DNA of 64,000 nt from Candidatus Omnitrophota bacterium (GTDB lineage: Bacteria > Omnitrophota > Gorgyraeia > Gygaellales > Profunditerraquicolaceae): NCBI GenBank assembly GCA_028712175.1, contig JAQTQQ010000001.1:96992-160991 (forward strand). The letters run 5' to 3'. The stretch's first letter is position 1; each line of letters begins with the position of its first letter. The translations under genes and the position numbers were made by a program. The notes beneath the pieces are model-generated. The model was given only the letters and a program-made list of their open reading frames with translations, did not search any database and was not told where the DNA came from. Below, one piece after another: positions 19,985-34,705 of this stretch.

Positions 19985-19986
19985 AC

Positions 19987-20970
19987 ATGCTTAAATATGG
20001 AATTGTTTTTACCGCCGCTTTGATCTTTGGCATAGTTTTTACATTCTTATTGGCAAGGTATTCTTTAAAACATAAGATACTTAAAATCGAGTCTATTCCG
20101 TCGGTCGGAGGTTTGGGAATAGGTATGGCTTTTATTTTTTCTTTAGGTTTAGGCATATATGTATTCAATCTGGCTACAGCCAAGATGTTGGCGATAGCAG
20201 GCGCAGGCCTGCTTATGTTGGCCCTGGGGGTAATCGATGATTTAAAAGAATTATCGGTAGCGCAGAAATTCTTTGTGCAATCATGCTGCGCGGTTTTATT
20301 GATCATCTCCGGGGTAAGGACGGAAATTATGTATTTTGGTTTTTGGCCGAATGCCGTAATTACTTTCTTCTGGATATTGGGCATAACTAATGCATTTAAC
20401 CTGCTTGATATTATGGATGGTTTGGCCGCGGGGGTATCTCTTATTATAAGCAGCGCATTCCTATGGATAGGTTTATTTAACGCAGACCTGCAGGTGCAGG
20501 TTTTAAGCCTTATTCTCTGTGCTCTTAGCGCAGGTTTCCTCATTTTTAATATGCCACCGGCAAAGGTATATTTAGGTAATTCAGGCAGCCATTTTCTTGG
20601 CTTACTCATTGCTTCGCTTGCTTTGATTACGCATTATGCATCCAGTAGTAATGTATTTGCCCTGTTTAGCCCAATAATGATTGTCGGCCTGCCGGTAATG
20701 GATACAATATTGCTTATAATCTTCAGGATGATTAAAAATAAGCCCCCCTTTAATAAGAGCAGGGATCATCTTGCTTTAAAAATCGGAGCCTTGGGTTTTT
20801 CGCCGGTTAAGACAATTTTGATTATGTATTTATTAGGGGCTATTTTTGCTTCATGTGGGATTATTTTGACCCGGGTAAATAATATCTTTGGTGCAGTTAT
20901 CACCACCTCAATTTTTTTATTAAGCATAGGCATATTCTTTAGACTTGTAAAGATAGAGACAAATGGCTAA
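19987..20970 (+). CDS. polyprenyl-phosphate sugar-1-phosphate transferase (MraY/WecA family)
   Basis: 'NAFNLLDIMDGLAAG' DDxxD-type motif in an 11-TM protein. Confidence 0.8.
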   Translation: MLKYGIVFTAALIFGIVFTFLLARYSLKHKILKIESIPSVGGLGIGMAFIFSLGLGIYVFNLATAKMLAIAGAGLLMLALGVIDDLKELSVAQKFFVQSCCAVLLIISGVRTEIMYFGFWPNAVITFFWILGITNAFNLLDIMDGLAAGVSLIISSAFLWIGLFNADLQVQVLSLILCALSAGFLIFNMPPAKVYLGNSGSHFLGLLIASLALITHYASSSNVFALFSPIMIVGLPVMDTILLIIFRMIKNKPPFNKSRDHLALKIGALGFSPVKTILIMYLLGAIFASCGIILTRVNNIFGAVITTSIFLLSIGIFFRLVKIETNG

Positions 20971-22255
20971 GAAAATTATTATTTTAGGGGCCGGGCTCGC
21001 CGGCTTAAGCGCCGCCTGGCACCTTAAAAAGAAAGGGATACAAGCGACTGTCTTTGAGAAAGAAGCCATTGTCGGGGGGTTGTGCCGGACTAAGAAGGTC
21101 AATGGCTTTGTTTTTGATTATGACGGCCACCTTTTGCATTTTCAAAACAATTATGCATTGAAGTTGTCAAAGAGATTATTGAAAGGTAATTTGATCCGGC
21201 ATGAAAGAAAAGCATGGGTCAGCAATTTCGGTATTTTTAGCCGCTATCCGTTTCAGGCTAATCTTAACGCTTTACCTAAGCCGGTGGCCGAAGAGTGCTT
21301 GTGGGGTTTTGTGCGGGTATGTAATGCTAAACCCGCTATGCCCGGAGAGAATTTTCTAAAGTGGATAAATGCCACGTTCGGCCTGGGCATAGCCAAACAT
21401 TTTATGGTCCCTTATAATGAAAAATTCTGGGCAGTCCCTTTAAACCAGATGGTTTGTTCTCTGTGGGTCGAGAAATTTATTCCCCGGGTATATCTCTCTG
21501 ATATAGTTAATGGATTCCTTGAGGGCAGCTGCGATCATTTTGGTTATAATGCCTTTTTTTGGTATCCTAAAAAGGGCGGGATAATGCAGCTGCCATTGGC
21601 TTTTGAAGAAAGCATAGGAAAAATCTTTAAAAACAGCCGTATCAACCGCATAGACCTTGAAAAGAAAGAGATAACCATAAACGGGAAAGATAAAGAAAAA
21701 TACGATTCCTTAATTTTAACAATACCTTTGCCTGAATTGATTAAAATAGCCCGGCCTTTACCGCATAAAATACTGGCCTGCCTTAATAAGCTGCAATGGA
21801 ATTCTATTTATAACTTGAACCTTGGCGTAGAAGGAACCTGTCAGCCTGACAAGCACTGGGTATATTTCCCGCACAAGGAAACTGTTTTCTTTAGGGCAGG
21901 ATTCTTTCATAATTTTTCCCATGACCTTGCGCCAAAAGGGAAGAGCTCTTTATATGCGGAAGTTTCGTATTCAAGAAATAAGCCGATTAATAGAAAGAAT
22001 ATCGTAAAACATGTTTTAAGGGATTTGTATAAACTCGGAGTCATCACAAAGAAAAATAAAATATTAGTGACAGATGAAAATGACATAAAATACGGTTATC
22101 CGGTTTATAATCGTAATTATATAAGGGCAACCAGCGTAATTAAGGATTTTTTGTATTCTAACGGCGTGATTACCTGCGGCCGTTATGGTTCATGGAAATA
22201 TATGTCGATGGAAGACTCTATTCTTGATGGCAAAGAAGCAGCGGAGGTTTTTTAA
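20963..22255 (+). CDS. FAD-dependent oxidoreductase (amine-oxidase / UDP-galactopyranose-mutase-like fold)
   Basis: N-terminal dinucleotide-binding 'IIILGAGLAGLSAAWHL' plus 'GGLCRT'. 430 aa. Confidence 0.5.
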   Translation: MAKKIIILGAGLAGLSAAWHLKKKGIQATVFEKEAIVGGLCRTKKVNGFVFDYDGHLLHFQNNYALKLSKRLLKGNLIRHERKAWVSNFGIFSRYPFQANLNALPKPVAEECLWGFVRVCNAKPAMPGENFLKWINATFGLGIAKHFMVPYNEKFWAVPLNQMVCSLWVEKFIPRVYLSDIVNGFLEGSCDHFGYNAFFWYPKKGGIMQLPLAFEESIGKIFKNSRINRIDLEKKEITINGKDKEKYDSLILTIPLPELIKIARPLPHKILACLNKLQWNSIYNLNLGVEGTCQPDKHWVYFPHKETVFFRAGFFHNFSHDLAPKGKSSLYAEVSYSRNKPINRKNIVKHVLRDLYKLGVITKKNKILVTDENDIKYGYPVYNRNYIRATSVIKDFLYSNGVITCGRYGSWKYMSMEDSILDGKEAAEVF

Positions 22256-22259
22256 GGAG

Positions 22260-23036
22260 ATGCTTAAAAGAATAAAGAATATCTATTATTTTCGCCACAT
22301 CCTTTTTGATATGGCTATCAATCAATTAAAAGCTAAGTATGCCGGTTCGCGTTTTGGCATCTGGTGGGCGGTAATCGTCCCGTTGTTGCTTGCTTTAAGC
22401 ATAAATTTTGTCTTTCAGGTAATTTCTAAAATAGCAATACCGAATTACGCTTTTTTTGTATTATCCGGAATTATGCCGTGGCTTTTCTTTACCGGTGCCC
22501 TGACCGAGGTGAACAATTCATTTATAGCCAGCGCTTCCATATTAAAACAGAGTAGGTGCCCGCATGAATTTATACCACTTTCCCTTATTTTGGCCAACCT
22601 GCTTAATTTCTTAATCGGATTTATTTTTATCTTACCGCTGTTTATGGTGATTAAGCCGGCGATTTTGCTCGTGGTTGCTTATTTGTTTCTAATTATACTG
22701 CTTGAGACTTTTTTTATAATCGGATTAGGGTTAATTTTTGCGACCCTTAATGTATTTTTCAGGGATCTCTCTCATTTTCTATCTATCGGTTTTACCGTCT
22801 GGTTCTGGATTACTCCAATCTTTTATTCTTTGGATATGATCGATTTATCTTACCGTTGGGTTTGCTTTTTAAACCCGATGTCATACTTTGTTTCTTCCTA
22901 TCAAAGTATTTTATTCGAGGCAAAAGCCCCACTGCCTGCGGCTTTATGGGCTATGTTTGTTATTGCGGCCGTTTCTTGCCTGGCCGGGTATTTAATTTTT
23001 ATTAAAAATGAGCCGGAACTACTGAAAAGAATATGA
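22260..23036 (+). CDS. ABC-2 type polysaccharide export permease (Wzm/TagG-like)
   Basis: The ORF-track start (22185) overlaps the upstream gene, so I placed the start at the internal Met 22260 (the alternative is 22227). The protein has 6 TM segments, N-terminal 'RHILFDMAINQLKAKYAGSRFGIWWA', and is coupled to the Wzt-like ATPase. Confidence 0.65.
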   Translation: MLKRIKNIYYFRHILFDMAINQLKAKYAGSRFGIWWAVIVPLLLALSINFVFQVISKIAIPNYAFFVLSGIMPWLFFTGALTEVNNSFIASASILKQSRCPHEFIPLSLILANLLNFLIGFIFILPLFMVIKPAILLVVAYLFLIILLETFFIIGLGLIFATLNVFFRDLSHFLSIGFTVWFWITPIFYSLDMIDLSYRWVCFLNPMSYFVSSYQSILFEAKAPLPAALWAMFVIAAVSCLAGYLIFIKNEPELLKRI

Positions 23037-25765
23037 TCGCAATAAAATTCGACAATGTCTGGGAGAAATACCGGATTAAATTCATAAACGCAGGCAAGGT
23101 ATCATGGGAAGAGTTTTGGGCTTTAGAAGATATAAGTTTTCAGGTTGAAAGCGGGCAAGTGCTCGGGATAGTCGGCCAAAACGGGGCAGGTAAAAGCACT
23201 GTCCTAAAATTAATTGCCGGCATGCTTATCCCCGATAAGGGAAAGGTTTCTTTGACCGGCAAGGTTTCTACCCTTATGGAGCTGGGAGCAGGTTTTAATC
23301 CGGAATTGACCGGAAGAGAAAACGTTATTGTTAATTCAAAGATTTACGGATTGGATGAGAAATTACTGGATAGCCGGCTGCCCGAAATTGTAGAATTTGC
23401 CGGGTTAGGCAGGTTTATCGACGCTCCTATAAAATATTATTCGCAAGGGATGTATATGAGGCTGGCATTTGCTTTAGCCATATATGTCGAGCCGGACATC
23501 CTTCTTATTGACGATATCCTCGCCGTTGGGGATGAAGAGGCAAGGTTGCGTTGCTTAAAAAAGATATTCACCCTGAAAGAGAAAGGTAAAACCATAATTT
23601 TGGTGAGCCATGATATGGATATGATAAGAAAAATTTGCGACAGGGTCATTTTCTTAAAAAATGGAAAAGTTATCAATATAGGGGAGCCGGATAATATAAT
23701 TCCTTGTTATCTGGATAGTTTAGGAGATGCTAAAGGAATAGCATCCTTGAATAAAGGCCCGTTGCGCATGGCGTTTAATAATGGCAAGCTATCTTTTAGT
23801 TACGGCAATATTATGCTTACAAGGGGTATAAGTATTTATATGGCTGCCCTGTTAGCAGATTCTGGGCTTTGGCTCCCTTCGTTTAATCTTGAATGGGTTG
23901 TAAGAAATATGTCCGAAGATGCCCTGATTGTAGAGGGGAGAAATAAAGAAATTAATATTTCTCAATTATGGAGTTTTGATATTGGCGAAGATAATCTCCG
24001 TTGTCAGGTTAAGGTGGGCGGAAATGTTAAATCATTGCGTACAGACTTATTTTTAATCCAGGATTACATCGGCTGGTCGGATCTGTCCCGGCAGGAAAAT
24101 TTTGGCTCCTTTAATCATAAGTCAAGCTGGCAGGAGGTGCATACTAATAATGCAGAGCTTGGCCTTATAGGGCTGAGGCCTGCCGAGGATAAAACTAGTC
24201 TGCCGTTTTTATTATTTGAATTTGGAGAAAACGGCCGTTTTTTTAAGCTTTTTAATACCGGTTATGAGCAGGAGGCACGGGTTATCCAAGTCCCCTTGGC
24301 AGCGGATACTTATTCCATGACGATTAATTTTTTTCCGCAAGAAGATGGATTTAGGGCATCTCTTAATCGGATTAAAGCCCAGCTGGCTTTGACTCATCAG
24401 GCAGAAGCAGAGCGCCTTCAATTAGGGCAGACAATATCTTCGGGGCGTTTACGCATTTTTTGTGATCTTGGGGGGAAAACCATCAGGATTTATTTTAAAG
24501 ACAAAGAGATAACTTACGGTAACGGTCTACATGCGGTGTTTGATACCGCAGAAGGGCAATTTATTTTTAAAAATAGCCAATGGCAGGTAGATAAAATATC
24601 CGATAATGAAATGATCCTAAATTTAAATTGTCACATTTTATCGCTCTCTCAGGTTTGGTTGTTGCGGTGCAATAACGAGAATTCATTAAATATACAGGTA
24701 AAGGTAAGAAGCGATAAAGAAATTTTTTTGAGAGAACAGTTTTTGAAATTGGAGCTGGAGGATAAATATGAAAGCTGGCGGACTCCTTATGAAGAGGGGG
24801 TATTTTTAATTGAAAGGTATATTGATGGTATTGCGCCGATAAGGTTGAAAGATAGCAAAACTTGTCAGGTTATTTTGAGCCCTTCGGGAAACATTTTACC
24901 CAAATTATCCTTTAAATCATCCGGGCATAAAGATGACGGCATTTTGAGCCTTTATAAAAGTAAATCCGTCAAAGATATCTCGGTTAACCTTAATTTTTCC
25001 AGAATTATTCCTAACGGCCAAATTTCTTTGCCTGCCGGTGATTATCTTTATTTTGAAGGCGAAATTTTATTGAATAAGGATATTGTTGAGGCAGAAAAGA
25101 ATATTTTGTCAGAGCAGGTTAAAGTAAAAAGTAAAGAGCTGAAGCTGGTTTTCGACCGGGGCAGGGGCAGGATTTTTTGGGCCCAAAAAGAGCTGACCAG
25201 GGGCTTAAGCCTTTATACAAGCCTGCGCCATTCGGGGATTTGGTATGATTCTTATCAGGCCTTATGGAGTATAAATAAATCGGAAGATAGGTATTTTGAG
25301 GTTTACGGAGCCTGGCCATATATTCCGGTTTCGCAGCTTTGGCAGGTTTATATAGAAGATAATGTATTGCATTGGAAAGTGCAGTTAGATGTCCACCAGC
25401 CGGTTAATCTGGAAATAATGCAGGCAAATTTGATGCTTTCCTGCGAATACAAAAACTGGCAGGTAGCTGCCGGGCAATCCCCGAATATTTTTCCGGAAGA
25501 GTATACTCAAGATTATGATATTTTGCCTTTTCGTCTCTGGTATGGCAAGCCGGCAGAAGCCGGGCTTATCTTGATTGGTAACGGCGTGCCGCAGGTTAAA
25601 TTTTTATCGCAGACATCCGATGAGGCAATTAGGGGAATTATCGAGAACACTGACTACCTCTATCATGCCCGGCTCATGCAATATCAAAAAACCGGCACCA
25701 GTAAATTACCCGCAGGGTCGTATCCTTACTTTGACGGCATAATAAAAATCGGCAATGATAAATAA
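23033..25765 (+). CDS. Wzt/TagH-like ABC transporter ATP-binding protein with ~680-aa C-terminal extension of three repeated ~100-aa domains
   Basis: Walker A 'GQNGAGKST', signature 'YSQGMYMRLAF', Walker B 'ILLIDD' and H-loop 'VSHD'. The C-terminal extension holds three copies of a motif (.. LT.G.GL .. W..S .. Q.W ..) that also occurs at the N-terminus of the next protein. Confidence 0.75.
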   Translation: MIAIKFDNVWEKYRIKFINAGKVSWEEFWALEDISFQVESGQVLGIVGQNGAGKSTVLKLIAGMLIPDKGKVSLTGKVSTLMELGAGFNPELTGRENVIVNSKIYGLDEKLLDSRLPEIVEFAGLGRFIDAPIKYYSQGMYMRLAFALAIYVEPDILLIDDILAVGDEEARLRCLKKIFTLKEKGKTIILVSHDMDMIRKICDRVIFLKNGKVINIGEPDNIIPCYLDSLGDAKGIASLNKGPLRMAFNNGKLSFSYGNIMLTRGISIYMAALLADSGLWLPSFNLEWVVRNMSEDALIVEGRNKEINISQLWSFDIGEDNLRCQVKVGGNVKSLRTDLFLIQDYIGWSDLSRQENFGSFNHKSSWQEVHTNNAELGLIGLRPAEDKTSLPFLLFEFGENGRFFKLFNTGYEQEARVIQVPLAADTYSMTINFFPQEDGFRASLNRIKAQLALTHQAEAERLQLGQTISSGRLRIFCDLGGKTIRIYFKDKEITYGNGLHAVFDTAEGQFIFKNSQWQVDKISDNEMILNLNCHILSLSQVWLLRCNNENSLNIQVKVRSDKEIFLREQFLKLELEDKYESWRTPYEEGVFLIERYIDGIAPIRLKDSKTCQVILSPSGNILPKLSFKSSGHKDDGILSLYKSKSVKDISVNLNFSRIIPNGQISLPAGDYLYFEGEILLNKDIVEAEKNILSEQVKVKSKELKLVFDRGRGRIFWAQKELTRGLSLYTSLRHSGIWYDSYQALWSINKSEDRYFEVYGAWPYIPVSQLWQVYIEDNVLHWKVQLDVHQPVNLEIMQANLMLSCEYKNWQVAAGQSPNIFPEEYTQDYDILPFRLWYGKPAEAGLILIGNGVPQVKFLSQTSDEAIRGIIENTDYLYHARLMQYQKTGTSKLPAGSYPYFDGIIKIGNDK

Positions 25766-28700
25766 TTATTATAAATTTAAAGAACACCTGAGACGTAAAG
25801 GGCTGCTTTATGCCTTTTTAAGAGGGCTGAAATATTTTATTTTTCTCTTAAGGAGCTCTTGTAGAAAAAACAAAGTAAATTTTAATTTTATCGCCAAAGG
25901 CAAAACCAGTATTATCTGTACGGCGTCAGGTCTTAAGATTTTCTGGGGAAATAAGGAATTAACTTCCGGTATTGGGCTGCATTCGCTAGTAAATACTCTG
26001 GGCCTGTGGACGGATTCCGTTACAGCCAGCTGGCAGATTATCGAAAGAGGGCCCGATTATTTTATTCTCAAGGTTGTTTTTAAGGCTCTGCCCTTAAACC
26101 AGATCTGGAAGATTAAAATTGAAAAGCAGGAAAGGATATCGCTGGATATAGCTCTTGAGGTTGAAGAGGAATTAAATATTGATGAACTGCGCGTTATGGG
26201 TTTGGTTAGTAATAAATATAAAAGCTGGTTCTGTGATTATAAGCAGGGGGATTTTAGCCGCCTGGATGATAAATTTTCTGATGTATATTTTGGGAATTCT
26301 CCGGCCAGGCTAATCGGGGTAAGGTTTCCTTTAGGAGAACCGGGCTTTTTAAATGCTTTTAGTTTTGACTGTGACGATAAGGATTGGTTTGCCGTAATCC
26401 AAAATCCACCCTCATTTACTGACGCCCGCCTAGTCGGCGTAAGGAGAGTATATCCCGGAGAAAATATCCTGCGCCCGGGTATCTGCTATCAGATAATATC
26501 ATCCGGCCTTGATTTGTCCAAAGATGGCCAAGACTTGGATATTAAGGTAGAAAGCATAAGGCGAACTTCTTTGGCGCCTATCCTCGGCACGGAGCTTGAC
26601 AATCAAAAAAGAAAAACCAGGATTTTGCTCGTCAATTTACCCTGGCAGAAGAATGGTGTTTCAGGCGTGCGCGCAGGATCGCGCTGGCCGCACATAAAAG
26701 GCCGGCCCGAAGATAGCTATTTGCCATTTCCCTTCTTTTTAGCCTACGCTACCGCTTTATTACGTAGCCGGGATATTGAAGCAGTGATGATTGATGCTAT
26801 AGCAGAAGGCCTAAGTGAAGAAAAATTCCTGGAAATAGTTTTATCAACTAAGTTTGATTATCTGGTAACTGAAACATCGGTTCCGTCTTTTAATGATGAT
26901 CTGTGCCTCCTAGAGAAAATAGCTAAAGCAGGGGCTAATATAATTTTATGCGGTCCGAATTACGAAATATATAAACCGGAGTTTTTAAAAAACCATACTT
27001 TTATCCAATTTGTTTTATACGGTGAGTATGAATTTACGCTATTAGAGCTGGTTGAGTCATTAAGGGATAAAAAAACCCTTTCTTCGGTGGCCGGGTTGAT
27101 TTACAGAGACAATGGCTCGGTTCAGGTTAACTCAAAAAGAGAACCGTTTCCGTTGGATCTTTTGCCTTGGCCTTATAGGGAAGGCCTGCCTATGGATAAA
27201 TATCTGGATGCCCCCGGTCGAATGCCTTTGCCTAGCGTTCAGATGATCGCTTCCCGGGGATGCCCTTTTAGGTGTAAATTTTGCCTCTGGCCGCAGGTTG
27301 TCTATCAAGGGCATGATTACCGCGTAAGGAGCGTACAAGACGTTGTTAGCGAAATGCAATATTTGGTTGAGGAAAAAGGTTTTAGATCCGTCTATTTTGA
27401 TGATGATACCTTTAATATAGGTAAACAACGGATGCTGGATTTTTGCCGTCAGATTAAAGAGCGTAAATTAAATAAAGTGAAATGGGCAATAATGGCCCGG
27501 CCCGACCTTATGGATGAAGAAATACTGCAGAATATGAAGGATGCCGGTTTGTGGGCTGTTAAATATGGCGTCGAGTCAGCCGTGCAAAGTTTATTGGATA
27601 ATATAGATAAAGATATGGATTTAGAAAAAGCAAAAAGAATGATTGAGTTTTCTAAAAAAATCGGTCTTAAGGTCCATCTTACTTTTACTTTCGGCCTTCC
27701 GCAGGAAACAATGGAAACCATTCAGGAAACAATAGATTATGTTAAAAAGGCTGATCCATATTCGGCCCAGTTTTCTATCACAACACCGTTTCCCGGGACA
27801 GAATACTATAAATCCTTAGACGGCCGGGGGATGATCCTTTCTAAAGATTTCTCCGATTACGACGGCCAATTTAAAAGCGTAATTAAATTAGAGAATTTAA
27901 GCGCTGCGGAGTTAGAAAAGGGCAAAGATAAGGCAACGCAGGCCTGGCAGGATCATTTAAGGAGAAAGGACTTATGGCGCAATAACCTGATAAAGCTTTA
28001 TTCTTTGGCAAAAGAAAAAGGCTTATCTTATGCGCTAGGTAAAGGTTTGAGGTATTTTAGAAACTTTCTGTTTCCTTATCCTGCTACTGACAAAGATTGC
28101 CTGCATCCGATGAGCTATGATGATCTGATCAAGAAAGTAAACTTTGGTTTTACGGATATACTTCTTATACAGTGTCCGCCATGGGATATCTCAATGCCGC
28201 CTTTAGGGGTTGCCTACCTGTCCAGTTATTTAAAAGAACACGGATACAATGCTTCTGTATTTGACCTGAACATAGCTTTGTATAATTTAGCAGGCGATAA
28301 CGCAAAGCGGCTCTGGGAGCAAAAGAATTATGACAAGTGGATGAATACCGATTCTCTGGAAAACGCAAATAACCGGCTAAAAGACGAGGCGGGTATCCTG
28401 CTTACCAAATTATTAGCCAAAGCGGATATCGAATATATCGGCCTTTCCGTAAATCTAGCCGGAATCAGTATGGCCGCGGGGCTTATTAAGATAATAAAAT
28501 TGCAGAAACCCAGCTCTAAGATAATTCTGGGTGGATGGGGGTGTATTAATGAACACATGCGCGGCCTTTTCCCCGCCGGATTAGTCGATGTTTTTGTCGT
28601 GGGTGAAGGCGAAGCTACGCTGTTAGAGGTAATTGAAGTATTTAGGGGCCTCAAAAAAGAGAGCGATGTCCGCGGAGCAATATTTAATCACAGAATTTTA

Positions 28701-29540
28701 GCTGATTATTCTCCCCGGGAGCCAATCATGGATTTAAATGTTATCCCCTGGCCGACTTTTAAGGAATTTAATCTGCACTGTTACGGATCCAGGAGCCTGC
28801 CGATTTTTACAAGCAGGGGATGTATTGGCAGGTGTAGTTTTTGCAACGACTGGCCGAATTCTACGCCTTACCGAAGCCGCAGTGCGCGTTCTATAATGGA
28901 TGAAATTATTTATCATATAAAGAATAACCATACAAAAACATTTAGTTTTAAAGATTTGTTATGTAACGGCGATATTGGTAACCTTAATAAATTAGCCGAT
29001 TTAATTATCGCCTCGGGGATAAAAATTAACTGGGATTCTCAGGCAATCCCCCGCAAAGAAATGACCTATGAGCTACTCTTAAAATTAAAGCAATCAGGCT
29101 GCAGCACTTTGATATATGGCATAGAAAGTTTTTCCGATAATGTCCTAAAACTTATGCGCAAGATATTTACTTCTTCTGTTGCCGAAGACGTGCTTAAGGA
29201 TACCTGGAGGGCGGGGATCAAAAGCTGTATTAATATCATTGTGGGTTTTCCGGGCGAGACAGATGAAGATTTTCAAAGCACATTAAAGGCGATAAAAGAA
29301 AACAGGCAGTATATCGGACAAATTGGGGCAATTAGCGTATGCCTGGTTAACCACAACAGTGATTTAGAGAATAATCATCAGCGTTACAACCTGATCCTGC
29401 CAGGCGATACCAGGATCAGGGCGAAGGAGTGGAGGAGCAGCGACAATTTGAGCACCTATCAGTTAAGGCGGCAAAGGGCTGAACGGATTTTGTCCATGGC
29501 CAATGAAATCGGACTGAAATATGAAACTTTAACCATATAA
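25755..29540 (+). CDS. tandem double B12-binding radical SAM protein (1261 aa) with N-terminal Wzt-C-like domain
   Basis: There are two units. Unit 1 has B12-domain 'RILLVNLPWQ...' and radical-SAM Cys triad 'RGCPFRCKFC'. Unit 2 has 'ILLIQCPPWD...' and 'RGCIGRCSFC'. Both units begin with the related leader 'HLRRK.L......L....KGL.YA...GL.YF'. Confidence 0.75.
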   Translation: MINNYYKFKEHLRRKGLLYAFLRGLKYFIFLLRSSCRKNKVNFNFIAKGKTSIICTASGLKIFWGNKELTSGIGLHSLVNTLGLWTDSVTASWQIIERGPDYFILKVVFKALPLNQIWKIKIEKQERISLDIALEVEEELNIDELRVMGLVSNKYKSWFCDYKQGDFSRLDDKFSDVYFGNSPARLIGVRFPLGEPGFLNAFSFDCDDKDWFAVIQNPPSFTDARLVGVRRVYPGENILRPGICYQIISSGLDLSKDGQDLDIKVESIRRTSLAPILGTELDNQKRKTRILLVNLPWQKNGVSGVRAGSRWPHIKGRPEDSYLPFPFFLAYATALLRSRDIEAVMIDAIAEGLSEEKFLEIVLSTKFDYLVTETSVPSFNDDLCLLEKIAKAGANIILCGPNYEIYKPEFLKNHTFIQFVLYGEYEFTLLELVESLRDKKTLSSVAGLIYRDNGSVQVNSKREPFPLDLLPWPYREGLPMDKYLDAPGRMPLPSVQMIASRGCPFRCKFCLWPQVVYQGHDYRVRSVQDVVSEMQYLVEEKGFRSVYFDDDTFNIGKQRMLDFCRQIKERKLNKVKWAIMARPDLMDEEILQNMKDAGLWAVKYGVESAVQSLLDNIDKDMDLEKAKRMIEFSKKIGLKVHLTFTFGLPQETMETIQETIDYVKKADPYSAQFSITTPFPGTEYYKSLDGRGMILSKDFSDYDGQFKSVIKLENLSAAELEKGKDKATQAWQDHLRRKDLWRNNLIKLYSLAKEKGLSYALGKGLRYFRNFLFPYPATDKDCLHPMSYDDLIKKVNFGFTDILLIQCPPWDISMPPLGVAYLSSYLKEHGYNASVFDLNIALYNLAGDNAKRLWEQKNYDKWMNTDSLENANNRLKDEAGILLTKLLAKADIEYIGLSVNLAGISMAAGLIKIIKLQKPSSKIILGGWGCINEHMRGLFPAGLVDVFVVGEGEATLLEVIEVFRGLKKESDVRGAIFNHRILADYSPREPIMDLNVIPWPTFKEFNLHCYGSRSLPIFTSRGCIGRCSFCNDWPNSTPYRSRSARSIMDEIIYHIKNNHTKTFSFKDLLCNGDIGNLNKLADLIIASGIKINWDSQAIPRKEMTYELLLKLKQSGCSTLIYGIESFSDNVLKLMRKIFTSSVAEDVLKDTWRAGIKSCINIIVGFPGETDEDFQSTLKAIKENRQYIGQIGAISVCLVNHNSDLENNHQRYNLILPGDTRIRAKEWRSSDNLSTYQLRRQRAERILSMANEIGLKYETLTI

Positions 29541-29550
29541 ATTCATTACA

Positions 29551-30747
29551 ATGCCTAATATCGGTCCAGACGATTATTTGTTAAAGGATATTAAAAACGG
29601 TTTCCGTGCCTCTATGGGGCCGCAGATTGTTCAATTTGATATTACCAACAAGTGTAATAATAATTGTTTATGCTGCTGGAATAGGTCTCCTTTATTAGGG
29701 GAGCTTTCTATGGAGAGAAAAAAAGAAAATAACGAGGAGCTTAAATTTGAAGTCATAAGAAAGACATTGGAAGAATTGCGTCAGATGGGGACGAAAACTA
29801 TTTTTCTGGCAGGCGGAGGAGAGCCTTTTGCGCATCCGGACATTTTGAAAGTATTAAGGTGTATTAAAGAAAACAACATGCGCACTTTTATTAATACCAA
29901 CTTTACTCTCATAAACAAGGAAATAGCAAACCAGATAACCAAACTAAAGATCGACCATATTCACGTAAGCCTTCTGGCCGGTACAGCCAAGACTTATGCG
30001 GGGATTCATCCCAACAAAACAGAAGAAACGTTCCATCAAATTGTAAATTTACTGAAGTATATTTCTTCGCTCAAAGAGCAATCCGGACAGCATCTTTATA
30101 ATCCCTTGCCTCATATTAATTTATATTATGTAATCTTCAGTAAAAATTATAAAGAGATAGATAAAATGATTGATGTGGCTATAGAAACTAAGGCCGATAG
30201 TGTTGAATTTACGCCTGTCGATGTCATCCCGGGTTACACCGATTCACTGTTATTGGGCAAAAAAGAGTCAGAGCATGCTTTAAACATGCTGGATAAGCAG
30301 TCTTTAAGAATAGAGCAGTATAATATTCACGAGCCGGTTAAGATCAGTATTACCCAAAAGGAAAGTTTTATAAAAAGGATCAGTTCGCAAGAAGCCTTGT
30401 TGGGGAAATACGAATCGGATAAAGTTATAAATCAGCCTTGTTATGTGGGGTGGGTATTTGCCAGGATTAAGGCGGATGGCAGCGTGAACCCCTGTTTAAA
30501 AGCCCACAGGATATCCATCGGGAATATCCACGAAAAATCTTTTAAGGAAATCTGGAATAGCACTGAGGAACAACTATTTAGGGAAAAGGCGTTTACACAC
30601 AACCCAAATGACCCATATTTCAATTTAATCGGTAACGACGCTAATATAAATTTTGGATGTATTAAAAGCTGCGATAATATTCAGATTAATCAGGAGATGC
30701 ACGCTAAATACGCCGGATTATTGCAAAAAGATGACAATTCCGCTTAA
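29551..30747 (+). CDS. radical SAM/SPASM(twitch)-domain protein, paralog 1
   Basis: 'NKCNNNCLCCW' CxxxCxxC, 'GGGEPF', and C-terminal aux-cluster cysteines 'PCYVGWVFARIKADGSVNPC' and 'GCIKSCDN'. Confidence 0.75.
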   Translation: MPNIGPDDYLLKDIKNGFRASMGPQIVQFDITNKCNNNCLCCWNRSPLLGELSMERKKENNEELKFEVIRKTLEELRQMGTKTIFLAGGGEPFAHPDILKVLRCIKENNMRTFINTNFTLINKEIANQITKLKIDHIHVSLLAGTAKTYAGIHPNKTEETFHQIVNLLKYISSLKEQSGQHLYNPLPHINLYYVIFSKNYKEIDKMIDVAIETKADSVEFTPVDVIPGYTDSLLLGKKESEHALNMLDKQSLRIEQYNIHEPVKISITQKESFIKRISSQEALLGKYESDKVINQPCYVGWVFARIKADGSVNPCLKAHRISIGNIHEKSFKEIWNSTEEQLFREKAFTHNPNDPYFNLIGNDANINFGCIKSCDNIQINQEMHAKYAGLLQKDDNSA

Positions 30748-31933
30748 AAAAGATAAAACTGCGCTTAATAAATTGCTGATCGACGGAGTTTTGTCTTCCA
30801 AATCAGCCTTTATCGGCCCGGAAGTATTGCATATTGATTTAACTAATCAGTGCAATTTTAACTGTATTGCCTGCTGGTGCCGGTCTCCTCTGTTAACCGA
30901 CAAAGCCATGCCGGATTGGGAAAAAAAATTAACCTTACCTCTTGATATCATAAAAGGGGTTATTGACGATTTAGAACAAATAGGGGGGCTTAGGCAGGTT
31001 AAATTAGTGGGCGGAGGAGAGCCTTTTATGCATCCTAACGTATTAGAGATAGTCGAATATATAAAAAGCAAAGATAAAGAAATTGAAATAGATATAAATA
31101 CTAATTTTAGCCTTGTTGATAAAGAAACCGCAGAGAAATTATTGCATATAGGGGTGGATTCTTTGACTATAAGTATCTGGGCCGGGAGCGCTCCGGTTTA
31201 TGCATCGGTGCACCCCAATCAGAAAGAAGAAACTTTCTATAGGATTAAAGATATTATGCGGTTTATATATGAAAGAAAGAAAGCAAAAGGGCTGTCTGCC
31301 CCAAGAATTATAATTCATGATGTGATTTTCAATTTGAATTATAAAGATTTAGAAAATATGATTGAATTCGCTTTAGATGCAGGAGCTGATTCTGTCCAGG
31401 TTGTCCCTGTGGATCCTGTAAAAGACAGGACCGAGAGCCTATTGTTAAGCGGCACACAAAGAAAAGAGCTTCTTGAGATTATTAACAGGATTAACAGGTA
31501 TTATGACCCAAAGACATTCCGTTATATTACTCAGGATAAAAGGTCTGTAGTTTTATGCGATTTTAACAGTTTTATACGCCGCGTTGAGAGGCTCAATATT
31601 GCAAGCGGAGTGTATGATGAGCAGGTTGTTGAAGAAATTCCATGTTATGTAGGCTGGTTATTTGCGAGAATTATGGCTACGGGAAATGTTGTTCCTTGTT
31701 GTAAGGGCCATAGGATGACTATGGGCAATATCTATAAAAACAGATTTAAGGAGATTTGGCTTTCTCCCGTTTACGATGAATTCAGGAATAATGGTTTAAA
31801 GCTTTCTAAAAATCATCCTTATTTTTCCGTGATCGGCAATTCCGCTACGGCTAAGACAGGCTGCTATAATTGTGACAATCTTTGGCAGAATATGCCAATG
31901 CATAAACTGATGAATTTAAAGAAAATATCTTAA
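30731..31933 (+). CDS. radical SAM/SPASM-domain protein, paralog 2
   Basis: 'NQCNFNCIACW', 'GGGEPF', 'PCYVGWLFARIMATGNVVPCC', 'GCYNCDN'. The start is placed at the internal Met (30731) to minimise overlap. Confidence 0.7.
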   Translation: MTIPLKKDKTALNKLLIDGVLSSKSAFIGPEVLHIDLTNQCNFNCIACWCRSPLLTDKAMPDWEKKLTLPLDIIKGVIDDLEQIGGLRQVKLVGGGEPFMHPNVLEIVEYIKSKDKEIEIDINTNFSLVDKETAEKLLHIGVDSLTISIWAGSAPVYASVHPNQKEETFYRIKDIMRFIYERKKAKGLSAPRIIIHDVIFNLNYKDLENMIEFALDAGADSVQVVPVDPVKDRTESLLLSGTQRKELLEIINRINRYYDPKTFRYITQDKRSVVLCDFNSFIRRVERLNIASGVYDEQVVEEIPCYVGWLFARIMATGNVVPCCKGHRMTMGNIYKNRFKEIWLSPVYDEFRNNGLKLSKNHPYFSVIGNSATAKTGCYNCDNLWQNMPMHKLMNLKKIS

Positions 31934-31934
31934 T

Positions 31935-33086
31935 ATGATAAAAGGTTTGTTTTCTTTTAAAAAAGTTAAGGCTTGGGTTTTGAATTTAAAAGGCATATCC
32001 ACTAAGTGTTACGCTTATAAAGGCCCCGATTTGGTTCAGATCGATTGTACGGATAAGTGCAATAGCCGCTGCCTTGCCTGCTGGGTGCATTCTCCGTTAC
32101 TTAATAGTAAAGAAAATAAAGATTTTCTTGATATAGAGCCATCAATATTAAAACGTTTTATAAGGGAGGCTAAGAAATCCGGGACAAGGGAGGTTTGTTT
32201 CTCCGGAGGAGGGGAGCCGTTTTTATATGAACATATTTGGGAGATTTTAGAGTTTACGCAAAAAAACAGCATGCCTTTTCGTATAAATACAAACTTTACT
32301 TTATTAAGCAAAAGGGATATAAAAAGGCTGCTTTCTTATAATAAGCTGGCATCTTTGACGGTAAGCATTTGGGCTCCTGACGCCGGCTTGTATTCAGAAT
32401 TACACGGAAGAAATAAGGAATCTTTCGACAGCCTGATTTCTAACTTGCGGTTTCTTAATAAACTTAAAACCCCCAGATTAAATGTGATTGTTTATTCCGT
32501 GATGACCAGTATGAATTATTTTGCTTCAAAGGCTTTGACGAATTTAGCCAGGGAAACGGGTTGTAGCGGCATAGAGTTTGCGCTTATTGATGCTATACCC
32601 GCAAACACAGATTCACTGCTGCTTAATGAAAATCAGTTGAGTTACCTAAAAAGTGATTTTCTCGGATTAATCAGGCAGGCAGAAGATTTTGGCAAGGCAT
32701 TTAAAATAATTAACAAAGAATTATTTCTTAGAAGGTTGTCTTGCCCCGGGGCAAGCTGCGGAGAATATGATGCTTTTGTCGATAGGATACCCTGTTATTC
32801 AGGCTGGGTTTTTTTAAGGCTACGGGCAAACGGAGACCTGAACTCGTGCCTTAAATCTCATAAAATTCCCATCGGGAATATCTATAATGAAAGTTTTCTG
32901 TCTATCTGGAACAATGCATCGCAGCAGGAGTTTAGAAGGAAGTGTTTAGCCCTTCCGAAAGATAAAGAATATTTCAAAGTTTTTGGCAACGGAAATTCCG
33001 CAGGTATCGGTTGCAGGCGCTCATGTGATAATATATTTAGCAATGAGCATGCCGGAAGATTGGTCAAGTATTTAATTAAGTTATGA
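31935..33086 (+). CDS. radical SAM/SPASM-domain protein, paralog 3
   Basis: 'DKCNSRCLACW', 'GGGEPF', 'PCYSGWVFLRLRANGDLNSC', 'GCRRSCDN'. Confidence 0.75.
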   Translation: MIKGLFSFKKVKAWVLNLKGISTKCYAYKGPDLVQIDCTDKCNSRCLACWVHSPLLNSKENKDFLDIEPSILKRFIREAKKSGTREVCFSGGGEPFLYEHIWEILEFTQKNSMPFRINTNFTLLSKRDIKRLLSYNKLASLTVSIWAPDAGLYSELHGRNKESFDSLISNLRFLNKLKTPRLNVIVYSVMTSMNYFASKALTNLARETGCSGIEFALIDAIPANTDSLLLNENQLSYLKSDFLGLIRQAEDFGKAFKIINKELFLRRLSCPGASCGEYDAFVDRIPCYSGWVFLRLRANGDLNSCLKSHKIPIGNIYNESFLSIWNNASQQEFRRKCLALPKDKEYFKVFGNGNSAGIGCRRSCDNIFSNEHAGRLVKYLIKL

Positions 33087-33202
33087 AAAAAATAAGAAGA
33101 GCAGGCATCATATTATTACTTTTGTTGGTTGCGGCCGTCATGGATACTTTACTGTTTGTATTAAAGAAGGCAAAAGGCATCCGTTTTTTCCCGGGAGGAT
33201 AA
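33083..33202 (+). CDS. unannotated 39-aa hydrophobic peptide MKKIRRAGIILLLLLVAAVMDTLLFVLKKAKGIRFFPGG
   Basis: Its ATG overlaps the TGA of the third rSAM gene (ATGA overlap), and it ends at the RBS of the next GT gene. It is below the 60-aa ORF-track cutoff. Confidence 0.25.
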   Translation: MKKIRRAGIILLLLLVAAVMDTLLFVLKKAKGIRFFPGG

Positions 33203-33205: not shown

Positions 33206-34705
33206 TTGAATATATTATTAATGCATCCTCATGATTTATATTCTTCCTCCGAGCCTTGGACGGTGCGCATAAAAAATATAGCTTGCCAGTTTGAAGCCAA
33301 AGGGCATTCGCTGAAGTTGGTTTATTTCCCTCTTGATAAACGGGATATCGGACACAGTTTTTTAAGCGATAATATTGAACTTATTGCTTTAGACAGAAGG
33401 TTAGGCATATTCAGGCTGTTTAGAAATATCCTGTCCGTGATGAGGCTATCCGCTTCATGCGATATAATACATTTTCAGAAATGTTATTATTATGTAGCGC
33501 TTCCGGCGCTGATTGCCGCATGGATTAAAAACAAACCGGTGCATTACGATTGGGACGATTGGGAGACAAAGATATTTTATTATTCAAATCCTTCCCAATT
33601 TCTTGTTGGCGGGTTTATCAATTTGTTCGAGAAATTAGTCCCCATGGCGGTAGATACAGTATCTGTTTCTAGCGGTTATCTTCGCCAAATCTGCCTTTTA
33701 AGGGGCGTGCTTAATAAAAATATCTTTTCTGCGCCGGTAGGCGCAAACTTGGAAGAGTTTTTTCCGGATCCGGATTCTAAGGGCAAGGTAAAGGGAAAAT
33801 ATGGAATAAATGGCCAGCTTGTTTTGTACGTAGGCCAGCTTCATGGCGGTCAATATGCCGAACTTTTTATAGCCGCAGCAGCAGATATTCTTAAAGAAAA
33901 TAAGCGGGATATATATTTTATGATTGTTGGCGACGGCTACCGGTTGAATGAATTAAAGCGCATAGCTTCGGATATGGGGCTGGGACCTCGTTTTATTTTT
34001 TCCGGGTTCATCCCTCATGAAAAGGTGCCTTCTTATATTAACGATGCCGATATCTGTGTGGCTTGTTTTGAAGACAATGCTATAACCAGGTGTAAAAGCC
34101 CTTTAAAAATCGCTGAATATTTAGCCTGTGCTAAAGCTATAGTTGCCAGCAATGTGGGAGAGGTCCGGAATATGGCAGGCGGGGTGGGAGTATTAACTGA
34201 ACCCGGTAATGTTTCTTCATTATCCGAGGGGATAAAGAGCTTATTGGATAACAAGGCGTTAAGGGATAGATTAGGCCATTATGCCCGCTTGAGGGCTGAA
34301 AGAAAATATAATTGGTTGGTTACGGCAGATAATATCCTGAGCGCATATACAGAAGCAATTAGGGTAAACGGAGATTGCAGCGGTTCTATCCAGCTTAATG
34401 GGAGGGGGAATATGGCGTATCCAGAGAAAACAGAGCATGGTTTTGATATTCTTACGGCAAGGGTTTTTTCGATAACCAGCCATGCGCCTGCCCCTTATAC
34501 TATTGAGGTTGAGCTTAGAAAACTTATCGGAGAGCGGCCAGACTCTTTAACGGTAGACCCGCGCTGCACTTTTTATAAGGACGATAAAGTCCCTAAAACA
34601 ATTAATATCGTTCAGCCCAAGGATATAATTGAAGTGACATATTTAGTTCATAATGGCATTAAAGTAGCTTTTAACATTATCGTCAGGCCGCCAAAGCCTT
34701 TCTGA
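33206..34705 (+). CDS. GT4 family glycosyltransferase with ~120-aa C-terminal extension
   Basis: TTG start with GGAGGA RBS 8 nt upstream (alternatively the ATG 27 nt later). GT-B motif 'SPLKIAEYLACAKAIVASNVGE'. Confidence 0.7.
   Translation: MNILLMHPHDLYSSSEPWTVRIKNIACQFEAKGHSLKLVYFPLDKRDIGHSFLSDNIELIALDRRLGIFRLFRNILSVMRLSASCDIIHFQKCYYYVALPALIAAWIKNKPVHYDWDDWETKIFYYSNPSQFLVGGFINLFEKLVPMAVDTVSVSSGYLRQICLLRGVLNKNIFSAPVGANLEEFFPDPDSKGKVKGKYGINGQLVLYVGQLHGGQYAELFIAAAADILKENKRDIYFMIVGDGYRLNELKRIASDMGLGPRFIFSGFIPHEKVPSYINDADICVACFEDNAITRCKSPLKIAEYLACAKAIVASNVGEVRNMAGGVGVLTEPGNVSSLSEGIKSLLDNKALRDRLGHYARLRAERKYNWLVTADNILSAYTEAIRVNGDCSGSIQLNGRGNMAYPEKTEHGFDILTARVFSITSHAPAPYTIEVELRKLIGERPDSLTVDPRCTFYKDDKVPKTINIVQPKDIIEVTYLVHNGIKVAFNIIVRPPKPF

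Follow-up and report, generated by a model that had tools for sequence, protein, structure and literature searches.

Radical-SAM (rSAM) enzymes form part of a glycan export locus in a Candidatus Omnitrophota MAG. Within the 64,000-nucleotide stretch of DNA analysed here (the window), six genes in 22260-33202, all of them ORFs on the + strand, encode in order a Wzm-like permease, a 910-aa Wzt-like ATPase, a 1261-aa double rSAM protein and three small rSAM paralogues, SP1, SP2 and SP3. We read them as belonging to a Wzm/Wzt-dependent pathway by which a diderm Omnitrophota bacterium makes surface glycan, with a built-in cytoplasmic rSAM tailoring module, and give this reading a probability of roughly 55%. 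Gene content, conservation as a unit, domain fusions and a shared domain with its fold are established here and there is good support for tying the rSAM enzymes to glycan export, while the chemistry is something that we infer. No account of this arrangement was found in the literature searched.

A first-pass annotation had placed a same-strand block between WecA-like and GT4 genes on one side and four glycosyltransferases on the other, and both ORFs and Pfam matches confirm this. It had counted seven genes, but only six lie within 22260-33202; a seventh, the FAD gene resembling UDP-galactopyranose mutase (UGM), would be coupled to them but lies just outside. The six genes meet at junctions of -4, -11, +10, -17 (with SP2 starting at ATG 30731) and +1 nt. 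Around them lie genes for a WecA-like initiating transferase and a UGM homologue and seven genes for glycosyltransferases or ligases. Pfam assigns the upstream side to Wzy_C, GT4, Glycos_transf_4 (WecA-like) and an FAD protein; downstream follow GT1, GT1, GT2 and GT2, then a tRNA-Leu. The locus comprises:

17627..18763, +, Wzy_C family membrane protein, O-antigen ligase/polymerase-like (PF04932, 73 bits)
18833..19984, +, GT4-family (GT-B fold) glycosyltransferase (Glycos_transf_1, 131 bits; Glyco_transf_4)
19987..20970, +, polyprenyl-phosphate HexNAc-1-phosphate transferase (WecA/MraY family), initiating enzyme (PF00953, 118 bits)
20963..22255, +, FAD enzyme, eukaryote-type UGM homologue (Amino_oxidase, NAD_binding_8)
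22260..23036, +, Wzm-like ABC-2 permease (PF01061, ABC2_membrane, E 5e-13); the ORF opens at 22185, ATG 22260 being the likely start
23033..25765, +, 910-aa Wzt-like ATPase (ABC_tran at residues 31-161, 79 bits)
23033..23737, +, its Wzt/TagH-like ABC nucleotide-binding domain (NBD), residues 1-235
23747..25759, +, its three tandem copies of the domain Ndom (residues 239-419, 468-683 and 699-909)
25755..29540, +, 1261-aa protein (two Radical_SAM stretches and B12-binding)
25755..25874, +, its N-terminal helical hairpin (helices 2-15 and 17-38 in the AF2 model)
25875..26624, +, its Ndom, a galactose-mutarotase-like beta-supersandwich and putative glycan-recognition domain
26625..28064, +, its first class-B-type rSAM domain, B12a, HpnJ/AprD4-like (motif CPFRCKFC)
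28152..29540, +, its second class-B rSAM domain, B12b, methylase-like (motif CIGRCSFC)
29551..30747, +, SP1, rSAM enzyme with a single-cluster (Twitch-like) auxiliary domain (Radical_SAM, SPASM)
30731..31933, +, SP2, paralogue of SP1 (Radical_SAM, SPASM; 37% identity to SP1); the ORF opens at TTG 30653, ATG 30731 being the likely start
31935..33086, +, SP3, paralogue of both (Radical_SAM, SPASM; 36% to SP1, 33% to SP2)
33206..34705, +, GT-B glycosyltransferase GT1b (Glycos_transf_1, 85 bits)
34749..35852, +, second GT-B glycosyltransferase, GT1c (Glyco_trans_1_4, Glycos_transf_1)
35852..37622, +, two GT2-family glycosyltransferases, 35852-36715 and 36657-37622 (Glycos_transf_2, 105 and 75 bits)
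37663-37743, tRNA-Leu, end of the locus

Exporter and enzymes share a domain. Pfam search of residues ~236-910 of the ATPase gave zero matches. An HMM made from the N-terminal domains of rSAM enzymes, however, matches three stretches of the Wzt protein (E 2e-17 to 2e-26), in agreement with BLASTP of the tail against the N-terminal domain of the 1261-aa protein (E 5e-9 to 3e-15). The repeat tail noticed in the first pass is indeed present, as three tandem copies in 675 aa of the same domain, Ndom, that occupies residues ~41-290 of the 1261-aa protein. Identity of the tail with Wzt_C (PF14524) was rejected; Pfam search did not detect that family and the fold differs. Ndom spans ~230 aa with a carbohydrate-binding-type fold, and just 574 cluster representatives carry it among the 1.84e9 proteins searched. 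Each of 120 Wzt homologues has 2-5 copies, and one protein has eight. Its fusion partners comprise B12a, B12b, the SP enzymes, Wzt and a GT-C (PMT_2) glycosyltransferase, and what unites them is glycan, not enzyme chemistry. A Trp/Tyr/Phe-rich signature (W85, W93, Q116, W118, Y155, W158, F167) is conserved in enzyme and Wzt copies, which share 20-23% identity, so that their ligand need not be the same. Fold and fusion partners suggest that Ndom is a glycan-binding element, although it could alternatively serve protein-protein docking. In archaeal loci the Wzt protein bears the canonical glycan-binding Wzt_C where Ndom would be, which is consistent with Ndom being a functional substitute of Wzt_C.

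The locus recurs as a unit. Orthologues with identical gene order and 45-77% identity occur in many independent metagenomes, and synteny was seen across 85 loci and across dozens of species-level genomes. Two relatives, L001 (55% identity) and L002 (48%), share the order WecA, UGM, ABC-2 permease, Wzt with Ndom tail, Ndom-B12a-B12b, three SP genes and two GT1 genes. Among Omnitrophota-type loci, Wzm and Wzt lie immediately 5' of the rSAM genes in 39 of the 45 with enough flank, the Wzt-Ndom fusion is found in 34/45, at least one SP paralogue in 45/46 and any glycosyltransferase in 37/46. SP units number 1-7 per locus. Versions labelled as DPANN archaea keep B12a/B12b, SP genes and GT1b, with Wzm/Wzt in 4/8. 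GT1b is the commonest gene after the rSAM block in relatives, with an orthologue in 31/46 Omnitrophota-type and 5/6 archaeal loci with sufficient downstream flank, and GT1c is kept behind it in L001, L002, L007, L020 and others. Upstream, the GT4 gene has an orthologue at the equivalent position in L001, the WecA-like gene is kept in L001, L002 and L087 (its product scores 93 bits against NCBIfam ECA_wecA, under the cut-off of 326), and the UGM homologue is found in half (19/38) of those Omnitrophota-type loci whose upstream flank reaches 8 kb or more. The Wzy_C protein, an accessory component of the locus, is also present in L030, L035, L057, L058 and L088.

Fusions point the same way. The rSAM domains are joined to one another in the orders Ndom-B12a-B12b-SP, Ndom-B12a-SP-B12b and Ndom-B12a-SP, to GT1 in P0454, P0483 and L014 (807 aa) and to GT2 in L042, and one 1856-aa protein in a WecA/UGM/ABC2 locus combines an ABC NBD, five Ndom copies and an rSAM domain. 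The assignment of the rSAM genes to the Wzm/Wzt glycan locus thus stands on conserved synteny, fusions and shared domain, and relatives retain the block as a unit. That an unrelated rSAM operon came to lie beside a glycan-export operon by chance, for which it can be said only that anaerobes commonly have genes of either type, is already refuted by these fusions (NBD-rSAM and GT-rSAM directly) and by the synteny, and is further opposed by genes that overlap or nearly touch and by the Ndom common to transporter and enzymes.

The hairpin that opens the 1261-aa protein has near-invariant residues (K7, H11, G16, Y19, R23, G24, Y27, F30), and its motif KGLxYAxxRGLKYF, read by eye, reappears behind the first rSAM domain at residues ~756-773. 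Both rSAM domains are class-B-like, as first annotated, and 29% identical, but Pfam matches B12-binding in the second only (residues 888-959). B12a is class-B-like in that it aligns over its full length with the models of HpnJ and BchE, and its cobalamin use is uncertain. HpnJ matches at 255 bits over profile positions 18-430 of 472 and BchE is second at 150 bits; the HpnJ score (255-330 bits) compares with a family cut-off of 577.6. The nearest solved structure is AprD4 (PDB 6fd2, E 4e-26). B12b has as top matches the RiPP C-methyltransferase family TIGR03975, PhpK and the CysS structure (PDB 9n1b, E 5e-11). As the NCBIfam scores all lie far under family cut-offs, no reaction can be transferred. 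The B12-dependent C-methylation first suggested for this protein would suit only B12b, which looks methylase-like; B12a is nearest to the sugar-rearranging non-methylases HpnJ and AprD4.

SP1, SP2 and SP3 are paralogues (33-37% pairwise identity) with Pfam SPASM matches, as had been described, but not full SPASM enzymes. SP1 conserves C35/C39/C42 and C297/C315/C370/C374; since the paralogues keep just four extra cysteines, they have one auxiliary cluster, Twitch-like and not of the 7-Cys SPASM type. The top PDB matches of the SP profile include BlsE, BtrN and DesII, and the proposed likeness to BtrN holds at family level and in the cysteine pattern, and no further.

From family knowledge, the WecA-like enzyme would load HexNAc-1-phosphate onto polyprenyl phosphate, the GT-B and GT2 transferases would lengthen the chain, and the UGM homologue may supply a furanose donor. 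Comparative evidence suggests that the five rSAM domains remodel sugar residues of the lipid-linked glycan prior to export: B12a might rearrange a sugar by radical chemistry, contract its ring or dehydrate it, B12b might C-methylate, and the three SP enzymes might oxidise, epimerise or decarboxylate in the way that BtrN, DesII and BlsE act on sugars. The single Ndom would recruit the enzyme to the chain, much as an RRE does for peptide-modifying rSAM enzymes, and the 2-5 copies on the ATPase would keep the chain at the exporter. With Ndom on both sides, modification may be coupled to export, by analogy with WbdD and the Wzt-CBM of E. coli O9a. The substrate level (polymer rather than monomer), every reaction type and the binding function of Ndom are here what we infer.

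The E. coli O9a/O8 polymannan system likewise uses Wzm/Wzt to export a cytoplasm-made polyprenyl-linked glycan, with a WecA-type initiator, a tailoring gene beside the transporter and an ATPase with a non-catalytic C-terminal module. There, however, Wzt carries a single Wzt_C module in place of tandem mutarotase-fold domains, tailoring falls to the WbdD kinase/methyltransferase and not to radical-SAM proteins, and only in the present system is the binding-type domain also on the tailoring enzymes. Chain-length control by capping would be an analogy for the present locus, as would the Wzt readout of a cap proposed in the first pass. Galactan pathways (Klebsiella O1/O2 D-galactan; mycobacterial galactan) also combine a WecA-family initiator, a pyranose-furanose mutase and Wzm/Wzt. 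The top NCBIfam match of our permease is the galactan export permease Wzm/RfbD (under cut-off), and the NBD scores 186-192 bits against TagH and 150 bits against galactan Wzt, all under cut-offs. Unlike the present locus, these pathways lack rSAM enzymes and their Wzt bears no repeat tail, and our mutase is of eukaryote type (PDB 4dsg, UDP-galactopyranose mutase, E 5e-49, residues 3-427), not bacterial Glf (3gf4, E 1e-4).

The chemistry could instead act on monomers, the rSAM enzymes making an unusual nucleotide-sugar or polyprenyl-phospho-sugar donor that the glycosyltransferases incorporate, with Ndom as a metabolon scaffold at the transporter; we put this at perhaps one chance in five. Tailoring of aminoglycoside and nucleoside sugars (AprD4, BtrN, DesII, BlsE; GenK-type class-B methylases) similarly combines B12-domain and Twitch/SPASM rSAM enzymes, and the four-cysteine auxiliary site of the SP enzymes resembles that of BtrN. 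The characterised sugar-acting relatives DesII, BlsE, BtrN and AprD4 all use small molecules (PMC9204698). These are soluble substrates of antibiotic pathways, whereas our genes, alike in sequence at family level only, lie in a cell-envelope glycan export locus with a recognition domain. An Aminicenantes genome has a minimal B12a and SP pair adjoining an NAD-dependent sugar epimerase/dehydratase, with no transporter or glycosyltransferase within 10 kb, so that the pair is not strictly dependent on an export context; GT-rSAM fusions would equally fit donor channelling. A carbohydrate-binding-type domain in 2-5 copies (eight in one protein) on the ATPase nevertheless suits a polymer better, as does Ndom on a GT-C enzyme, because GT-C enzymes use already-assembled glycans, and among the relatives compared the block shows no conserved gene for a nucleotidyltransferase or for sugar activation.

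We think it rather improbable that a glycolipid head group is remodelled to a carbocyclic or rearranged form and flipped by the ABC-2 transporter, with no long polymer. HpnJ is by far the top family for B12a, aligned over almost its entire model, yet at less than half of its cut-off. Radical ring contraction of a lipid-anchored hexose has been proposed both for HpnJ, where it concerns the glucosamine of a hopanoid, and for Cds (PMC9204698, PMC13459092), in hopanoid cyclitol ethers and calditol, respectively (PMC13459092; bioRxiv 10.1101/2023.10.20.563219). B12a differs in being fused to Ndom and a second class-B domain and in always having Twitch-type partners and usually Wzm/Wzt; hopanoid or tetraether genes were not found within the window. 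Archaea of the DPANN group lack LPS, and the occurrence of the system in genomes so labelled favours a glycolipid, as does the lipid synthase GDGT-MAS/Tes among SP relatives. Against it, 5-7 glycosyltransferases, a WecA-like initiator and a Wzy_C protein imply a multi-sugar chain on a polyprenyl carrier, and the tandem array on Wzt ranges from 2 to 8 copies.

Peptide or protein maturation, in which a ribosomal peptide or surface protein would be the substrate of SP enzymes and B12 methylases, to be exported by the ABC-2 transporter and glycosylated by the transferases, is very unlikely. SuiB, anSME, PqqE and PoyC are peptide- or protein-modifying enzymes. The fold neighbours of SP1 (AF2 model, pLDDT 93) are mostly of this kind (SuiB, anSME, PqqE, SkfB) and equally near as sugar-acting ones (TM-scores 0.43-0.59, query-normalised), the top B12b family is a RiPP model, and PMT_2 genes occur in some related loci. 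RiPP systems with RRE-bearing SPASM enzymes (PqqE/PqqD, SuiB) also have several rSAM paralogues able to bear a recruiting domain, an ABC exporter alongside and a variable number of maturases. However, no gap within the block exceeds 10 nt and that at its end measures 119 nt, too little for a precursor-peptide gene, and a small ORF conserved beside the block was not found in relatives, nor RRE, peptidase or LanB/C-type domains in Pfam/NCBIfam searches of the block. The transporter is of the Wzm/Wzt/TagGH type, and the recruiting domain is a carbohydrate-binding-type beta-supersandwich and not a winged-helix RRE.

Tailoring of a surface glycan is our preferred reading. The recurrence of this arrangement across the phylum suggests that in Omnitrophota radical enzymes remodel surface glycans before export.

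The putative glycan-modification system is encoded by six plus-strand open reading frames and flanked on both sides by glycan genes.

Genes of the block and its flanks (window positions)
Upstream flank: Wzy_C protein, GT4 transferase, Glycos_transf_4 initiator (WecA/MraY family) and FAD protein (Pfam)
20963-22255: the FAD protein, a full-length homologue of eukaryote-type UDP-galactopyranose mutase (UGM; PDB 4dsg, E 5e-49, residues 3-427)
22185-33086 (+): block of six open reading frames (ORF calling)
22260 (+): likely ATG start of the ABC-2 (Wzm-like) permease, as in the first-pass annotation (ABC2_membrane PF01061, E 5e-13)
Within the block: Wzt-like ABC ATPase, 910 aa (ABC_tran PF00005 at residues 31-161, E 8e-22)
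Within the block: 1261-aa protein with two Radical_SAM stretches and a B12-binding match (Pfam)
Within the block: SP1, SP2 and SP3, small paralogous radical-SAM (rSAM) enzymes of 398, 426 and 383 aa as open reading frames (SP2 about 400 aa from ATG 30731), each with Radical_SAM and SPASM matches (Pfam)
Downstream flank: two GT-B and two GT2 transferases (Pfam), the locus ending at a tRNA-Leu gene

The block genes are tightly coupled, because their junctions span only -17 to +10 nt (-4, -11, +10, -17 and +1 nt in order); permease and ATPase are encoded by separate, adjoining genes that overlap by 4 nt. The first-pass annotation had counted seven genes in this interval, which holds six. The initiating transferase scores 118 bits against PF00953 and 93 bits against the WecA equivalog, whose cut-off of 326 it does not reach. 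Three GT-B and two GT2 genes encode the cytoplasmic glycosyltransferases of the locus. The FAD protein has an N-terminal FAD-binding fold (NAD_binding_8, E 9e-16) and only remote similarity to bacterial Glf. Judged by sequence, an ABC-2 exporter, a WecA-type initiator and cytoplasmic glycosyltransferases would by definition make the block and its flanks an ABC-transporter-dependent glycan system. A scan for promoters and terminators between 17.5 and 37.5 kb gave counts at or below shuffle expectation. The downstream GT-B transferase at 33206-34705 (+) is 499 aa long, against about 389 aa for its orthologues in the related loci L001, L002 and L004, and has a C-terminal extension of about 110 aa without a Pfam match.

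The outlying window genes are unrelated, comprising trehalose synthesis, a P-type ATPase, a Tad-type pilus cluster and, on the opposite strand, two-component and FIST genes. In the Tad/Flp-like cluster, a secretin with a C-terminal TonB_C domain (45822-47414, +) and, as the next gene, a ParA/MinD-like ATPase fused to a T2SSE ATPase (47416-49575, +) both look unusual, and a 712-aa open reading frame at 50017-52155 (+) has no Pfam match at E<=1e-4. The trehalose cluster (6124-11048, +) holds a GT20 trehalose-6-P synthase with a long N-terminal extension, a phosphatase, a DUF5752 gene and a TreT-like glycosyltransferase.

The Wzt-like ATPase consists of a TagH/Wzt-like nucleotide-binding domain (NBD) and a 675-residue tail in which Pfam has no match. 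Three places in this tail match residues 41-290 of the 1261-aa protein (BLASTP E 5e-9 to 3e-15). The common domain (Ndom) was modelled as an HMM on the N-terminal domains of 109 enzyme homologues; this HMM detects it in 120/120 retrieved Wzt homologues as 2-5 tandem copies each, and the length of these homologues grows by about 230 aa per copy (about 690, 920, 1140 and 1380 aa). The sharing of a domain between transporter and enzymes, which had been proposed from the first reading of the sequence, is therefore real by both BLASTP and HMM.

AlphaFold2 models the enzyme copy of Ndom as a beta-supersandwich (pLDDT 87), and because of this modelled fold Ndom is not Wzt_C (PF14524), the feature of the capped-chain Wzm/Wzt subclass, which is absent from the window Wzt. 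Assignment of the tail to Wzt_C was accordingly rejected, there being no PF14524 match at E<=0.01 and a different, mutarotase-like supersandwich fold. Residues T70, G74, W85, W93, Q116, W118, Y155, W158 and F167 are conserved in enzyme and Wzt copies alike. As the sandwich has no conserved histidine, mutarotase catalysis by Ndom is unlikely. Searched against 1.84 billion proteins, a profile of the four window copies retrieved no more than 574 cluster representatives; Ndom is a narrow domain, specific to this system. The 1261-aa protein also carries a helix motif, KGLxYAxxRGLKYFxxFL, which precedes Ndom (residues 15-32, window 25797-25850) and recurs after the first rSAM domain (residues ~756-773, window ~28020-28073); homologues of about 790 aa have it at both termini. 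A docking helix is one possible role, an amphipathic membrane anchor another.

The two rSAM domains of the 1261-aa protein, B12a and B12b, are of class-B type, share 29% identity and carry the CX3CX2C cluster motif as CPFRCKFC and CIGRCSFC, respectively. In B12a (residues ~291-770), C503, C507 and C510 are invariant across 32 homologues. Nearly the whole HpnJ model aligns to this domain at 255 bits, followed by BchE at 150, both below cut-off, and among solved structures the diol dehydratase AprD4 is closest (6fd2, E 4e-26). For HpnJ, the proposed reaction is contraction of a hopanoid's glucosamine ring to a cyclitol ether (PMC9204698, PMC13459092). Assignment of B12a to the HpnJ equivalog (TIGR03471) was rejected, since the domain alone scores 255 bits and the whole protein 330 against a cut-off of 577.6. 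B12b (residues ~800-1261) is methylase-like, with similarity to TIGR03975, PhpK and CysS (9n1b, E 5e-11). The description of the protein as a dual B12 enzyme is a convenience, for Pfam supports putative B12 binding in B12b only, which has the one match to the B12-binding model PF02310 (38 bits, residues 888-959); B12a aligns to the HpnJ and BchE models across their N-terminal part and has no match to the Pfam model there. In one homologue, P0062 (1236 aa), an intein (PF14528/PF14890) splits the B12a radical-SAM domain, the flanking halves being 60% and 51% identical to B12a.

SP1-3 are 33-37% identical to one another. Their SPASM label stands as far as the auxiliary-cluster domain PF13186 is concerned (46, 44 and 35 bits against a cut-off of 21.5) and fails on the seven-cysteine motif: beyond CX3CX2C, alignments of 71 and 57 homologues conserve only C297, C315, C370 and C374. 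Four extra cysteines point to one auxiliary cluster, as in Twitch enzymes, and not to the two of SPASM proper. A PDB search with the SP1 sequence alone gave no match at E<=1e-3, and a 36-sequence profile retrieved BlsE, SkfB, MoaA, BtrN, DesII and GDGT-MAS (E 1e-16 to 1e-11), with the BtrN Twitch region aligned to profile positions 295-366. The SP1 model is confident (pLDDT 93), its Foldseek neighbours are at family level only (closest TM-scores about 0.53-0.59), and sugar-acting relatives could not be separated from peptide-acting ones by this search. In the related locus L002, a flavodoxin-like gene (Flavodoxin_2/FMN_red, 16497-17069) that is absent from the window lies between the second and third SP genes; its product could plausibly supply electrons to the rSAM clusters.

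Conservation of the block was examined in a scan of species-representative genomes, which found relatives encoded in 479 stretches. The 80 best loci are mostly from Omnitrophota; among these 80 there are also MAGs labelled 'uncultured Planctomycetia', Woesearchaeota and other archaeal-labelled MAGs, and single records of Aminicenantes, Patescibacteria and Caldisericota. L001 and L002 (55% and 48% identity) keep the gene order of the window, with WecA-like, UGM-like, ABC2 and Ndom-tailed Wzt genes, then a gene for Ndom, B12a and B12b, three SP genes and two GT1 genes; a third relative encodes the two B12 domains as separate genes. For a census, open reading frames were called in every locus and sorted into classes by using the window proteins as seeds; the denominators are those loci with enough flank on the relevant side.

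Census of related loci (Omnitrophota-type; archaeal-labelled)
Wzm and Wzt upstream: 39/45; 4/8
Wzt fused to Ndom: 34/45; 0/8
At least one SP gene: 45/46; 6/6
B12b present: 33/46; 5/6
Any glycosyltransferase: 37/46; 5/6
Ndom anywhere in the locus: 64/67; 0/14

The number of SP units per Omnitrophota-type locus ranges from 1 to 7, most commonly 3-4. The rSAM block also occurs in DPANN/Woesearchaeota-labelled genomes, including the complete CP010425. In the homologous locus L005, from a MAG labelled Nitrososphaeria, the stretch 16737-20484 (-) encodes a Wzt with canonical Wzt_C (PF14524) and, adjacent to the SP genes, a further Wzt_C protein of 395 aa. As a possible refutation of the unit we considered L061 (9881-12827, Aminicenantes CP070825), a bare pair of B12a and SP with no transporter or glycosyltransferase within 10 kb, which adjoins an NAD-dependent sugar epimerase/dehydratase gene and two spermidine synthase genes; it is an exception, not the rule. 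Sulfatase-fold (LtaS/EptA-like) domains, one fused to GT2, flank two of the related loci (L001 19849-23825; L002 1111-2643), as do PAPS-reductase/CysN-like genes, which suggests that the same glycan may bear phospho- or sulfo-substituents.

Domain fusions join these components further. Ndom, B12a, B12b and SP occur in the orders Ndom-B12a-B12b-SP, Ndom-B12a-SP-B12b and Ndom-B12a-SP; Ndom is also joined to B12b or SP enzymes, and glycosyltransferases are fused to rSAM enzymes as GT1-SP and GT2-SP. The 1856-aa protein P0263 (L087 3516-9086) combines an ABC NBD, five Ndom copies and a Twitch-type rSAM domain, and its gene directly follows WecA-like, UGM-like and ABC2 genes. Two GT-C (PMT_2) glycosyltransferases, P0346 (L088 104-4513) and P0323, carry four Ndom copies; the P0346 gene has Wzy_C, GT2 and BacA genes as neighbours, and its MAG also contains the rSAM locus L072. 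From these GT-C fusions, Ndom may be at work on the periplasmic side too.

Together, fusions and synteny establish, at the level of sequence, that the rSAM enzymes, the glycosyltransferases and the Wzm/Wzt exporter act in one predicted pathway. The coupling of rSAM chemistry to glycan export put forward in the first-pass annotation is thus well supported by comparative genomics. Ndom is carried by three kinds of rSAM enzyme, the exporter ATPase and a GT-C transferase, and the sole thing common to all of these carriers is the glycan. Because of this, and of the modelled fold, the most economical reading is that Ndom is a putative glycan-recognition domain. On the enzymes it would recruit the catalyst to the lipid-linked chain; arrayed on Wzt, it would keep the chain bound at the exporter. 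We propose this arrangement, Ndom on enzymes together with an Ndom array on Wzt, as a parallel to the pairing of WbdD with the Wzt CBM, whose logic is established for E. coli O9a.

Our overall model is that the rSAM enzymes tailor a lipid-linked glycan before its export by Wzm/Wzt, with Ndom as the recognition element, and we would give it a probability of roughly 0.55. Going only by the nearest characterised relatives, B12a would carry out a radical rearrangement, ring contraction or dehydration, B12b a C-methylation, and the Twitch enzymes SP1-3 an oxidation, epimerisation or decarboxylation; these specific reactions and a 'cap-reading' role are offered as hypotheses. A bolder reading, which we think somewhat less likely than not, is that Omnitrophota and some DPANN-labelled archaea remodel assembled, exported surface glycans by radical chemistry on the lipid-linked chain, Ndom both recruiting the rSAM enzymes and serving as an export checkpoint on Wzt. 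The reactions could then include contraction of a sugar ring to a carbocycle, deoxygenation, C-methylation and epimerisation, and the supersandwich would be a so far undescribed 'glycan recognition element', the carbohydrate counterpart of the RRE of RiPP systems.

The same enzymes might instead act at the level of precursors, with Ndom as a scaffold, which we think unlikely. Remodelling of a glycolipid head group in the manner of HpnJ or Cds appears more doubtful still: HpnJ is the best-scoring model for B12a, but the window domain differs from it in its score, which is below cut-off, and in its gene context, as no shc, hpnH, hpnI or hpnK domains of hopanoid biosynthesis occur among the window ORFs scanned. 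There is very little to recommend maturation of a peptide or protein. RiPP clusters have a precursor gene beside the maturases, whereas the gaps of <=10 nt inside the block leave no room for one; no small open reading frame is conserved in L001, L002, L004 and L005, and RRE and peptidase domains were looked for and none found. Chance adjacency of rSAM and glycan-export genes is negligibly probable beside the recurrent fusions and synteny.

Known targets of radical-SAM tailoring are small-molecule sugars, lipids and peptides. Such tailoring of exported cell-surface polysaccharides is not known in the literature searched, and neither rSAM genes in Wzm/Wzt loci nor this Omnitrophota system are described there (subscription-only papers lie outside it); matches from the Xanthomonas literature were of terms in unrelated contexts and held nothing relevant. 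We would class the locus as a glycan pathway of the Wzm/Wzt kind with two novel features, a putative radical-SAM tailoring module so far undescribed and, on Wzt, a putative substrate-recognition array of a new type. Should the post-assembly reading of chains prove true, it would be the first radical-SAM tailoring of a polysaccharide, and Ndom a new class of Wzt substrate-recognition module. Ndom offers a concrete handle on how ABC exporters select finished chains, and a search key for glycan-modifying rSAM enzymes in metagenomes.

If the module acts on the glycan, anaerobes would gain an oxygen-independent route to deoxy, C-methyl, epimerised and carbocyclic residues in their envelope polymers, with linkages that could withstand glycosidases and acid. 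Among the Omnitrophota loci sampled the system is near-universal, and the number of rSAM paralogues, from 1 to 7 per locus, varies much as a serotype locus does. It therefore probably shapes the surface of this widespread, uncultured and partly host-dependent phylum.
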